Source of the DNA: Rhizaria sp. SCN 62-66 | Lineage: Eukaryota | NCBI GenBank assembly: GCA_001724265.1 | Contig: MEDY01000001.1 | Coordinates: 62,001 to 126,000, forward strand | Reading direction: 5' to 3' | DNA: 64,000 nucleotides | In this document: positions 30,162 through 53,678 of the stretch, piece by piece | How the letters are laid out: every line of letters begins with the position of its first letter | Position numbering within the stretch: the stretch's first letter is position 1 | The notes under the pieces: generated by a model | The model's database searches: none | The model's input: only the letters and a program-made list of their open reading frames with translations | What the model was told of the DNA's origin: nothing | Program-made: the position numbers and the translations under genes

Positions 30162-33100
30162 ATGTTCGGTCGCCTCGCCGCGCTGGCGGGCGGCAAGACG
30201 CCCACTAAGCCGTCTGCATCTCCGCCGCCGGCCTCCCCCGCCACCGGCGGGCCCATGAGTCCTTACACAGCGCCCCTGAGCCCGCCCATGGCCAAGTTTA
30301 CGCTCTTGGGCCCCGGCGCGCCCGATGCGACCACGCCCGCGCTGGGCCCCGCGTCCCCGCCCTTCCCCGCAGTCGGTGCCGGCTCTACTGCTGCTGCTGC
30401 TGCTTCAGCAGCAGCTGGGACGAACAGCAACGCACCCCCGATGCATCACCACATGATGATGCCGCCGGGCGCGTCCGGTGGCCCGCCTGCGCCGCAGTCG
30501 CGGTCCTTCTCAGGCGCCCACTCGCCGCCCACGGGTCCGCACGTCTTCCCCCAGCCCTTCGAGCTCGAGGCCGACGCCGCCGTCTTCTCTGACAACGCGA
30601 CGGCCTCCTCTGCCGCCGCCGCGGGGGTTCTTGCGCGCGCGAGCCCGCCGCCGTGCGAAGAATTGGCCCAGAGTGGCGTGCCGCTGGGATGGACGTCGTC
30701 GTCGCTGCTGTCGTACCAGCTGCCGCCCGCCGTCTTCCTCCCCGGCGGTGGGCTGGGAGTGAATGTCGACGCCTTTGACGCGTACGCACCCGCCCGTGCA
30801 CACGCGCGTGCCGTCCTGACCGTCGCCGCCGCCGACGCTGCCGCGGCACTTGCGCCCCCCGCCACAGCATCCTCTGCTGGCGCTGGCGCTTGTGAGGCTG
30901 AGCCTGCCCTGCGGCTCTCCTCGTCTGCGACCACCACACTGCCCGCTCAGGGCCTTTCGTCTGCGCAGGTGCTCCACGCGCTTGCGCCCTCGACCTCAAC
31001 CCCCGCCTCCGCCTCCGGCATTGGCGCGCGCGCGTACGCCGTGGCGCCGGCCCCGTTGCACGCGACGCGCACGACGGTGTTGCCCTCTGCCTCGCGCCCC
31101 GGCGAACGCCTAACTGTTACCACGACCAGCCTCGCGTCGGACGCGGCCGCCCGCACCGCGCTACCGCGCGCGCCGCCCGCCGTGCTGTCCGCGCGCCGCC
31201 ACGCGCCGCTGCGCACCGCGCAGGGCCGGTTTCTGCCCGCGGTGCCGCGGTACGCGTCCCCGCTCGACGCGCTGGTGCTGCAGCAGGCACAGGCGCACGC
31301 CGCGGCCGCGCTAGGCTCCAACTCAGCCTCAGCCTCCGCAGCAACAACAGCAGCAGCGTCCACCTCTGCGTCTGTTGCGGCTGCGCGTAAGCTTAAGACT
31401 GCGTGTCTGATCTTAGTAACGTGTCTGAACTTCGGCGTCGACCCGCCTGAGGGCGCGCGCCCTACTGGCGGTCTGCCACTTGAGGCCTGGACGCCCGTGC
31501 CGCCGTCGCAGGCGGACGTGATGGCGATGCTTTCAACGCCGGGCGGCGGCGGCGTGTGGAGCCACCTCTACGGCGGCGGCGACACCGACGATCCGGCCGT
31601 GCTCGCTGCTAATGCAAACGCCGTCTCTAACGCCGGTCCAGGAGCGCGGTCTGGCGCGGCGGCCGGCGCACACCCGGCGTCGCCGCTGAGCCACGTGCCG
31701 ACCGCTGCGGCGGCGTTGACGGCCGTGGCGGACTCGCTGCAGACGCTCTACACAGCGATGCAGCCAGGCAAGACCCGCGCCAAGACGCTGCTGGACCCGA
31801 CGGCGACCGAGGTCAAGAAGGTCTGCGCAGCGATGCGACGGCTGGCCAAGGGCGACCGCGTGCTCGTGCATCTCCACGGTCACGGCGTTCCGCGGCCGAC
31901 GACCAAGGGCGAGCTGTGGGTGTTCAACAAGGATTTCACGCAGTACGTCCCAATCCTCGCGTTTGATCTGCAGAACTGGCTCGCGGGCCCCGGCATTGTG
32001 GTCGTCGAGTCCAGCAACGCCGGCCGCGTCGTCACGGCCTGGGGCTACTACGCACGGCAGAAGCACGCCGAGGCGCTGCGCCACGGCGACGCCGCCAAGG
32101 CCGCGGCCGCGGAGGACATGCTCGCGACGGTGCTCTTCGGCGCGTGCGGCGGCAGCGAGTCGATTCCTTCGGTGCCGGGTCTCCCACTCGACGTCTTTAC
32201 GGCGACGCTGACGAACCCGATTGTGATGTCGCTCGCCGTGCGCGCGCGCGCGCTCCCGCGGTTCCGCCACCTCGCGCTGCGCGACCTCCAGCGCGTTCCG
32301 GGCGCCGCTACAGAGCGCGGGACCATGCTTGGCCACCTCACCTGGGTGCTCACCGCGGTCGCAGACGCGGCGGCGTGGTCCACGGTCCCGTTGGAACTCT
32401 TCCAGACGTGTTTCCGCGACGAAGTGATGCTGGCGACGCTGTTCCGCCACTTTCTCGTCGCGCAACGCGTCGTGTACGCCGTCTCTGGCGGCGCCGCGCT
32501 GCCCGTGTCGGCGCCCGCGCTGCCCGCGGCCACTGCGCTGAAGCATCCGCTGTGGGCCGAATGGGACGCCGCGCTCGACTCGGCGCTGGAGCAGCTTGCC
32601 GCCGCCGTCGCCGCGGAGAAGGCCGACGCCGAGCGCGCGAAGAAGCTCCGCGAGAGCCAGCCTCTGCACCATCATACTTGCTCGCAGCAACAACAGCAAC
32701 AGCAGCAGACGGAGGCCAAGAGCGACATCGCGACCCCTGGAGCGTCCGAGTCGTCCTCCTCCGCGGCGCTGTTAACCTCGCAGGCGTCGTTCGCCGCCAC
32801 TGCGGGCGAGAGCAGCGCCGGCGCGACTGCGACGGCGACAGCAACTGCAGCCACCGCTGCCGTTGCGAGCGGGCCGCGGCCGATCGTGCCGTTGACGCTG
32901 CCGACACCGTTCGTGCACTCGCCTTTTTTCGCGAACTGCGTCTCCACGATCGAGCTCTGGCTCGCGGTTACGCCTGCGCTGCACTCGTACGAACCCATGA
33001 CCGTGCGTACCCCCGGCACCGCCCCGGGCGCCGGCGCGACGTACACCGTCGGCCCGCCGCAGCGGCCGCAGGCGCCGTCTGCGCTGCCGGCCGTGCTGCC

Positions 33101-52700: not shown

Positions 52701-53678
52701 GCGGCGACGGTGACGCTGGCCGATGTGCTGTCGGGCGTGACGGCCGTGGCGCCGCTCAGCGCGCTGCCATGGTGGGTCGCACAGCTCTCGCCCTACTTCG
52801 CGCAGCCCTCCGCCGCGTCCGCCGCGGCCGGTGGCGCGGGCGCCGGCGCGGTCGTGCTGCCGACGCTGACGGTGATGGACTTCGCGGGTCACACGCTCAC
52901 GCCGCACGCTGCTGCGGACGCGGAGGCCGCGTCAACGGACATCGCCGCCGCCGCTGCGGGCGCAGCGCCCTCGGCCTCGGCGTCTTCCGCCGCCGCCGCC
53001 GCCGCAGCTGCCTCACAACGCACGGGGCTTGTCGGCGCGACTACCGCGTCCTCTGGACTCCTGCGCGTGCCTGCGCCGCATATGGCCGCCGCGGCGCCCG
53101 CGAACCAGCAGCCCGGCGCCCCCGGAGCCTCGGGCTCCGGCGCCGGCGTTGGCGCTGGTGCTGGGTCCGGCTCGTCCAGCTCTGCCTCGGCCACTGCCGC
53201 CGTGTCCGCGTCGGCGCTGGTGGCCGCGCTGGACGGCGTGCAGAGCCAGTGGCGCGCGGTCTACGAGGCCGTGCTCGCGCTCGCTACCACGCGCGCGCGC
53301 GAGGGCCACTCCGCCTCGTCCCCCGCCTCGGCCTCGGCGTTCGGCGGCGCAGGCCAGCCGGCGGCGACTGACAGCGGTTGCACGAGTGGTGGCGGCGGGT
53401 GCTGCGGCGGGTCGGCGTGCGAGGACTGCGCGTTTCTGGAGCTGCTCGCGCGCATCGGCCTCCCGCCGCTGCCGTGGGCGAGCCCGTCCCCGGCCAGCGC
53501 TGAGCTGACGCCCTGGTGCCCGCCGTGGGCAGCCGCGCACGACCGCGTGACTGTGAGCGGCGTGACTGCGCTCGCGGTGCACCCGCACGCGAATATCGTC
53601 GCCACGGCCGTGACGAATGTCGCCGCGACCGGGCAGACGCAGGCCGGGCACATCGTGCTCTCGCTCCAGCTCACGTGA
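30162..53678 (+). CDS. RPTOR: Giant Raptor/KOG1 (TORC1 scaffold) homologue, 7838 aa, single ORF
   Basis: RNC blocks KLKTACLILVTCLNFGVDPP, LDPTATEVKKVCAAMRRLAKGDRVLVHLHGHGVPRPTTKGELWVFNKDFTQYVPI, LPLDVFTATLTNPI, LGHLTWVLTAVAD, HPLWAEWD. HEAT/ARM blocks LPVMLQLLLATAHRRKAL..GAWAVDVAISIGVLPYVRRLLQ, PQVRATAVWALGTF, DGSSLVRQE. WD40 blocks FHPWDPVLAAAD, LLTTGAADGVVRVW, VTALAVHPHANIVA. All occur in canonical order. Stop TGA. Confidence 0.93.
40716..40772 (+). repeat. (AGC)n microsatellite encoding poly-Ser inside Raptor
   Basis: AGC AGT followed by 17 perfect AGC units (40722-40772). Confidence 0.9.

Follow-up and report, generated by a model that had tools for sequence, protein, structure and literature searches.

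The 64,000-nucleotide window analyzed here (Rhizaria sp. SCN 62-66, contig MEDY01000001.1, positions 62,001 to 126,000 of the forward strand; all coordinates below are those of the window) contains one uninterrupted open reading frame (ORF) of 7838 codons, whose predicted product is a Raptor with a caspase-like N-domain. Raptor is the substrate-recruiting scaffold subunit of TOR complex 1 (TORC1), and the protein encoded here is a new, extreme variant of this known family. About 6600 of its residues do not align to Raptor; they are located at the N-terminus, in the loops of the solenoid, in the solenoid-to-propeller linker, and in the loops between the propeller blades.

The ORF extends from 30162 to 53678 on the plus strand, starts with ATG, and carries a single stop at its end, exactly as the first-pass annotation of this DNA had described it. 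Across this interval, the other two sense frames contain 114 and 91 stops, compared with none internal in the ORF frame, and the longest ORF in each of the remaining five frames measures 300-695 aa. The predicted product has a mass of 756.4 kDa and an isoelectric point of 8.7, and is dominated by small residues (Ala 25.9%, Ser 11.0%, Gly 9.5%, and Pro 8.8%), with Arg at 4.7% and Lys at only 0.7%. This composition agrees with the Ala/Ser/Pro/Gly-rich stretches that had been noticed between the conserved blocks. Poly-Gln is limited to five runs of 7-12 residues each. The ORF lies within a block of 70-79% GC, and both of its ends match abrupt switches between GC-rich and AT-rich sequence, the upstream switch falling at the ATG.

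Raptor domains in a single reading frame

The identity of the protein is clearest in its N-terminal region. The Pfam family Raptor_N matched residues 516-626 (E 8.5e-35, 120.2 bits versus a cut-off of 27). A custom profile hidden Markov model (HMM), built from 40 Raptor matches of 1250-1420 aa and comprising 1259 match states, aligned nodes 34-524 to residues 394-1074 (nt 31341-33383) with 473 bits. A homologue search with residues 405-1113 as the query, against 1.84 billion representatives, returned 1822 matches at E<=0.001, with identities of 33-46% in the best 150 of the 1822. Ten of the matches were looked up, and the six clusters that carried a source name were all labelled as Raptor/regulatory-associated protein of mTOR or as Raptor N-domain. 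The five organism-named clusters came from green algae, a chytrid, a tunicate, and an ostracod, at similar identity; one member of the cluster from the green alga Picocystis was labelled as a haptophyte. Human RPTOR matched the N-terminal 748-aa piece with E 8.6e-90, and 69 columns of the RNC/armadillo (ARM) part were invariant in all 31 aligned sequences (the ORF product and 30 Raptors).

An AlphaFold2 (AF2) model of residues 366-1113, calculated from an alignment of 30 homologues, gave a predicted template modeling score (pTM) of 0.74, with helical repeats present and a predicted local distance difference test (pLDDT) value of at least 90 in 348 residues. When this model was searched with Foldseek, PDB ranks 1-16 were all Raptor/Kog1 chains from human, Arabidopsis, Chaetomium, and yeast (E 3e-31 to 1e-17), and these were followed by caspases, metacaspases, and legumains at E ~0.1. 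Structure prediction of the conserved blocks had been suggested at the outset; as modeled, the N-terminal ~700 residues adopt the Raptor fold. The RNC/first-armadillo region (residues 394-1074) holds internal inserts of 62, 90, and 32 aa, and these three inserts are exactly the model segments with pLDDT <50. Inspection of the alignment by eye also showed that the Asp-Cys pair of the RNC domain, conserved in at least 90% of the 30 other Raptors, reads Glu-Ser in the ORF (residues about 615-617, window about 32100-32130). We know of no catalytic activity of the RNC domain.

All blocks share one frame and follow the profile order of RNC, armadillo/HEAT, and WD40. From the RNC domain through the armadillo/HEAT region, profile nodes up to 791 were matched colinearly (residues 394-1074, 1894-1946, 2243-2280, and 2619-2843). 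Every diagnostic block listed in the first-pass annotation was recovered within a few dozen bases of the position given there, and the HMM scan that it had called for returned a strong Raptor_N match, together with HEAT (residues 2243-2270, 22.6 bits) and WD40 (residues about 5743-5762, 22.1 bits) matches below the curated cut-offs. These matches lie above the level of chance. In a shuffle control, residues 1109-7838 scored 54.1 bits with seven domains at >=0 bits, whereas none of 200 copies shuffled within 40-residue blocks exceeded 2.8 bits or had more than one such domain; the same residues in reverse scored -3.5.

Six colinear blade-like motifs, each of them weak, were found, compared with the seven expected in the Raptor propeller. 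The matches at residues 1802-1818, 6554-6571, and 7798-7820 came from a segment-by-segment profile search, and none of them is significant singly. HMMER aligned residues 5313-5348 out of order, to profile positions 1213-1248 in the last blade, a row that probably represents a cross-match between blades of similar sequence. The custom-HMM row over the blade that begins at residue 6363 was weak and extended over residues 6363-6463 (profile 1085-1185). A MAFFT alignment of residues 1780-2960 with 30 Raptors was rejected; it spread family-wide at 15-20% identity, with the blocks misplaced.

The length of the product sets it apart from the Raptors found in the searches. Among the 150 best Raptor matches, the median length was 1299 aa and the maximum 2332 aa, which the ORF exceeds 6.0-fold and 3.4-fold, respectively; the estimate of about five to six times the normal length, made from the sequence alone, was accurate. 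Human RPTOR (1335 aa; 5h64_B, 6bcu_W, and 7ux2_A) has the same order of RNC, armadillo/HEAT, and WD40 domains, and the N-terminal model superposes on its Raptor chains (Foldseek E 3e-31), whereas the ORF product is 5.9 times longer, includes about 6600 residues without a human counterpart, and has a WD40 part that is undetectable by pairwise search. Kog1 of Saccharomyces cerevisiae (7pqh_A, TOROID structure) belongs to the same family (E 3.6e-74; Foldseek rank 11). Two Gln-rich prion-like motifs of Kog1 are described as required for Kog1-body formation (PMC4686425), which shows that sequence of biased composition in a Raptor can be functional. The Kog1 inserts are short and Gln/Asn-rich, whereas those of the ORF comprise thousands of residues and are Ala/Ser/Gly/Pro-rich, and a functional parallel between them would be an analogy only.

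Two further proteins with Raptor_N, a metagenomic protein of 2332 aa (P0082) and a Leptomonas pyrrhocoris protein of 2474 aa (P0156), also lie above the 1299-aa median, but the ORF is more than three times longer than either, and their Ala content is only 8-12%. The P0156 match is weak (33% identity over 19% of the query). RPTOR1 of Leishmania (L. major), a protist Raptor of normal length, is described as a protein of 1471 residues that has RNC, ARM, and WD40 domains and whose binding to TOR1 was shown (PMC10933368). A search of 5.8 billion clusters for a comparably long Raptor produced 656 candidates of 4310-13717 aa, none of which matched at E<=0.001, although this search was word-based and is not proof of absence. 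No report of long or insert-rich Raptors was found in the literature searched for them.

Coding character and placement of the inserts

The matched blocks amount to 1212 residues, leaving 6626 non-block (insert) codons. The insert codons contain no stops in the ORF frame, compared with 83 in frame 2 and 81 in frame 3 (ln P ~ -82), and the block codons contain none, compared with 31 and 10. The GC fractions at codon positions 1/2/3 were 0.72/0.70/0.855 in the inserts and 0.71/0.56/0.871 in the blocks, and the GC fraction at the third position (GC3) remained between 0.76 and 0.92 along the whole ORF (39 of 39 bins of 600 nt). Relative synonymous codon usage was closely correlated between inserts and blocks (r = 0.97), and the correlation with eight other ORFs of the window was 0.87-0.99. 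When a codon-frequency model was trained on six other genes alone, it preferred the ORF frame in every one of the 78 consecutive 300-nt windows, by a minimum of 8.3 and a median of 44.5 ln units, indicating that no stretch of at least 300 nt looks non-coding. No AT-rich intron-like stretch was found inside the ORF; the sole site at which a 60-nt window falls below 50% GC, 43551-43620, encodes poly-Asn. The inserts belong to the reading frame and look coding throughout. The first-pass annotation had taken them to be translated because the frame is kept across them, and the frame is indeed kept, with uniform coding statistics; translation itself is a deduction from these, and the entire frame most likely yields a single polypeptide of about 756 kDa.

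The inserts were found to follow profile nodes 88 (62 aa), 395 (90 aa), 423 (32 aa), 524, 597, and 634, with further inserts after nodes 703, 715, about 792 (2469 aa), and about 1016 (447 aa). The 40 ordinary Raptors also have insertions at those nodes, of up to 25-107 aa. This agreement between inserts and variable nodes is partly expected, because the insert probabilities of the profile were learned from those 40 sequences; the flanking anchor blocks are real. Tandem arrays were not found as a source of the inserts (Tandem Repeats Finder gave 33 rows, each of 117 nt or less), and self-BLAST of the product revealed no internal duplications. A Pfam search of eight insert pieces at E<=0.5 yielded nothing beyond the weak HEAT and WD40 bits already known.

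The data do not show that the inserts are disordered throughout, as had been suggested earlier: of the non-block residues, SEG masks only 58% (of the block residues, 25%), and a single-sequence AF2 model of residues 3560-4700, with a mean pLDDT of 33.3, is uninformative on order versus disorder. Low-confidence helices appear in that model at residues 3609-3830 and 4549-4685. Searches of the ESM Atlas with residues 2844-4880 gave weak helical-repeat leads (best score 0.83, recognition 1269).

The window DNA derives from a metagenome, and its sequence recurs in other sequencing runs. Three DNA runs from bioreactors/wastewater (two studies), one of which is possibly the window's own source, contained 0.90-0.99 of the sampled words of 31300-41299, and a polyA-selected activated-sludge metatranscriptome from a third study (run X4) contained 0.42 of them. 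Contigs, not reads, of four runs were aligned to the 20 kb from 31300 to 51299. DNA run X3, which comes from a different study, gave eight listed pieces of 743-4129 nt that covered 13.6 of the 20 kb with no differences; the 4129-nt piece (42163-46291) begins inside the largest insert and extends into the first WD40 blade. From the polyA run X4, eight listed pieces (396-580 nt) aligned without differences or gaps, and four of these lie wholly inside inserts (37414-37882, 43778-44343, 44532-45062, and 50622-51175). No credible splice joint was seen in X4: all 15 of the listed joints have 23 letters or fewer on the shorter side, and several sit at CAG-repeat places. Joints with such short sides were treated as repeats or as matches of other GC-rich organisms, and patches of the ORF that had no listed RNA contigs were not taken as absence of RNA.

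Explanations for the length of the protein

We think it likely that the ORF is a genuine single-exon Raptor orthologue, that GC-driven, Ala-rich expansions at sites tolerant of insertion have enlarged it about sixfold, and that it is probably translated whole. Its host would be a very GC-rich, intron-poor microbial eukaryote that recurs in bioreactor, wastewater, and activated-sludge metagenomes. A single 23.5-kb exon would give rise to one protein in which the canonical core is kept in its usual order, and the inserts may project as loops from a normal core in which binding to TOR and LST8 would be retained. They probably arose by genome-wide, largely neutral, GC-driven expansion, and not by Raptor-specific adaptation. 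The neighboring genes are likewise Ala-rich and lengthened; therefore, a genome-wide compositional process is the simpler explanation of the inserts, and Raptor is the extreme case of a window-wide inflation, not an isolated one. On the more sober reading, its length reflects genome-wide compositional drift and not new TORC1 biology. A possible parallel is provided by the AT-rich proteome of Plasmodium falciparum, in which Asn-rich homopeptides are described as low-complexity inserts within domains (PMC7534687). In both cases, the base composition of the genome may dictate the insert residues of otherwise conserved proteins, but the bias in the present window is the mirror image (GC-rich codons leading to Ala, Gly, Pro, and Ser), and its scale per protein is far larger.

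Several points weigh against an inflated orthologue that is translated whole. Translation is deduced and not observed, no gene caller on record made this gene model, and the exact protein is absent from ~15 billion proteins, although ATPase, C2, and Der1-like proteins of the same contig are present among them. JGI metagenome contigs gave no relative close enough to test selection on the inserts (seven loci at 28-41% identity, on contigs of 5 kb or less). In the propeller region, single blade matches score just 0.1-5.7 bits, one of the seven expected WD40 blades was not located in the segment-wise profile search, and a phmmer search of the C-terminal 2639 aa against the PDB retrieved no Raptor, its only match being a designed WD40 protein. 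For RNA, the evidence is limited to assembled contigs, which give neither strand nor transcript ends, and DNA carry-over in the RNA library is possible, the comparison having covered only ORF sequence. No single contig in the four runs spans the ORF, and repeat lengths may be imprecise, because the pieces break at short repeats.

That the extra residues contribute to the working of TORC1 in this lineage, as a flexible scaffold or an added helical domain, seems unlikely. In one version, a huge, flexible, partly helical Ala-rich scaffold would tune the assembly, localization, or condensates of TORC1, as a scaled-up analogue of the Kog1 motifs; in the other, a lineage-specific helical domain would occupy the 2469-residue linker, and the ESM Atlas leads and low-confidence helices are compatible with it. 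The first-pass annotation had named removal of the inserts by splicing as a concern. It is improbable, in our estimation, that parts of the inserts leave the mature mRNA as GC-rich in-frame (exitron-like) introns, giving a protein much shorter than 7838 aa. Such removal could escape notice in polyA contigs that cover the ORF only partly (0.42 of the sampled words of 31300-41299, in listed pieces of 580 nt or less), the more so since contigs and not reads were examined and rare isoforms drop out of contigs. It is, however, at odds with a coding signal in the ORF frame in every 300-nt window, with inserts that contain no stops and have block-like codon usage, and with a nearby intron candidate that is short and AT-rich. 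Over the part that they cover, the X4 contigs are gap-free in the inserts, four of the eight listed ones lying wholly within them, and all 15 listed joints are too short on one side (23 letters or fewer) to be credible.

Even less probable is a divergent, possibly neofunctionalized or decaying paralogue, with a normal-length Raptor elsewhere in the genome carrying out the TORC1 work. The strong divergence of the WD40 region, from which one blade was not found, and the replacement of the RNC Asp-Cys pair by Glu-Ser (by eye) would fit such a paralogue, and the copy count, which covers the 64-kb window only, likewise leaves room for it and weighs against the preferred reading. Yet the frame is intact over 23.5 kb with a strong codon bias, the 69 invariant columns of the RNC/ARM part are common to all 31 sequences, the 33-46% identity to ordinary Raptors is the usual inter-phylum level, and the neighboring housekeeping genes are likewise inflated. 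An assembly artefact, in which a chimera or mis-joined low-complexity repeats created an artificially long frame, is highly improbable. The metagenomic source gives some ground for suspicion, as do the contigs of other runs, which break at short repeats (33448-33605, 34273-34346, 36440-36490, and six more) and of which none spans the ORF. Against an artefact, the run from a different study repeats 13.6 of 20 kb with no differences, including the 4129-nt piece that joins insert to blade, three DNA runs contain 0.90-0.99 of the sampled words, the order of the blocks follows that of Raptor, and the tandem arrays are short (each 117 nt or less). A chance chimera, moreover, would not leave one frame open for 7838 codons.

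If translated, the inflated orthologue would be by far the longest Raptor among the searches made here, and would provide a natural map of insertion tolerance, for inserts of hundreds to thousands of residues, in the caspase-like domain, solenoid, and propeller of Raptor. It would also raise the question of how TORC1 is assembled with roughly 1.5 MDa of Raptor per dimer. The findings point to an uncultured wastewater eukaryote with proteins strongly inflated by Ala-rich sequence in this window, and they carry a practical warning, in that a giant protein is missing from a 15-billion-protein collection that contains its neighbors.

Neighboring genes and feature coordinates

The features of the ORF and of the surrounding window are collected in Table 1. 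Each of the larger genes of the window consists of one long, uninterrupted ORF and has the codon bias of the Raptor ORF; several show clear inflation. For the GMD gene, there are relatives at 84-90% identity, and the best named ones among the matches listed are chytrids, at 70-71%; the best local alignments of the high-identity matches cover only 63-74% of the query.

Table 1. Features of the giant ORF, its flanks, and the neighboring genes (residue numbers refer to the ORF product and profile positions to the custom HMM; i-E, independent E-value)
Feature	Coordinates	Strand	Basis or remark
Complete giant Raptor/Kog1 ORF (predicted), 7838 codons + stop	30162..53678	+	Frame and codon statistics
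N-terminal extension, 393 residues, Ala/Pro/Ser-rich	30162..31340	+	0 Pfam families at E<=0.5
RNC caspase-like domain and first armadillo repeats, residues 394-1074	31341..33383	+	Custom HMM, Pfam, AF2, Foldseek
Insert, 727 residues, after profile node 524	33384..35564	+	No Pfam family in 33384-35840
Weak colinear armadillo block, residues 1802-1818, profile 527-543	35565..35615	+	Score -4.9, not significant alone
Armadillo/HEAT block, residues 1894-1946, profile 550-595	35841..35999	+	Weak custom-HMM match
HEAT repeat block, residues 2243-2280, profile 597-634	36888..37001	+	Custom HMM; Pfam HEAT, HEAT_2, HEAT_EZ, all weak
Last armadillo/HEAT block, residues 2619-2843, profile 605-791	38016..38690	+	26.9 bits, i-E 6.4e-11
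Largest insert, 2469 residues, armadillo-to-WD40 linker position	38691..46097	+	No Pfam family
First WD40 blade-like motif, residues 5313-5348	46098..46205	+	Custom HMM; putative blade assignment
WD40 blade motif, residues 5742-5763, profile 994-1015	47385..47450	+	Weak custom-HMM and Pfam match
WD40 blade motif, residues 6211-6253, profile 1042-1084	48792..48920	+	Weak custom-HMM match
WD40 blade motif, residues 6363 to about 6400, profile 1085 to about 1120	49248..49361	+	Custom HMM
Weak colinear WD40 blade motif, residues 6554-6571	49821..49874	+	Score -7.2, not significant alone
Insert, 1226 residues, inside propeller region	49875..53552	+	One expected blade not located here
C-terminal WD40 blade motif, residues 7798-7838, directly before stop	53553..53675	+	Score -0.5, i-E 0.012
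AT-rich upstream spacer	29642..30161	.	GC 0.38 at 29631-29810; GC 0.45 at 29851-30160
AT-rich downstream spacer	53679..54005	.	GC 0.40 at 53681-54040
P-type cation ATPase, 1588 aa, 19% Ala	5476-10242	-	Lengthened by Ala-rich sequence
TMEM70-family gene, apparently split	11370-12555	+	ORFs 11370-11759 and 11950-12555 joined in frame
Der1-like protein, 384 aa, domain ends at residue 203	13242-14396	-	Lengthened by Ala-rich sequence
Uninterrupted 2952-aa ORF, 27% Ala, 0.5% Lys	15677-24535	-	No Pfam match
GMD, 440 aa versus matches of 313-421 aa	25439-26761	-	Lengthened by Ala-rich sequence
819-aa ORF	27182-29641	+	No Pfam match; unusual codon profile
Small CS-domain gene	54006-54626	-	

The TMEM70-family gene is plausibly split by an AT-rich intron, judging from its sequence. 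The candidate intron, 11760-11949, has a length of 190 nt, starts with GTACGT, ends with TAG, and lies in a region of ~43% GC; the second ORF matches the family profile from position 22, starting at its own third residue, with a score below the Pfam cut-off. This is the sole intron candidate seen in the 64 kb, so that the proposal that real introns in this DNA are short and AT-rich is plausible and rests on a single case. No tRNA or Rfam matches were found in the window. Raptor proteins bind TOR and LST8 and recruit substrates with a TOS motif, and none of the genes in the window encodes such a partner.

The 2952-aa ORF represents a second giant Ala-rich protein, with codon usage almost identical to that of the Raptor inserts (r = 0.99). 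The 819-aa ORF is unlike every other gene of the window, with a GC3 of 0.43-0.78 (mostly 0.43-0.63) in its first 1.9 kb and of 0.82-0.94 in its last 0.6 kb. The spacers between genes are 0.4-1.5 kb long and contain about 35-48% GC, whereas the coding sequence has about 75%. The orientation of the genes changes at about 26.8-27.2 kb (minus upstream, plus downstream), and a second time near 61 kb.

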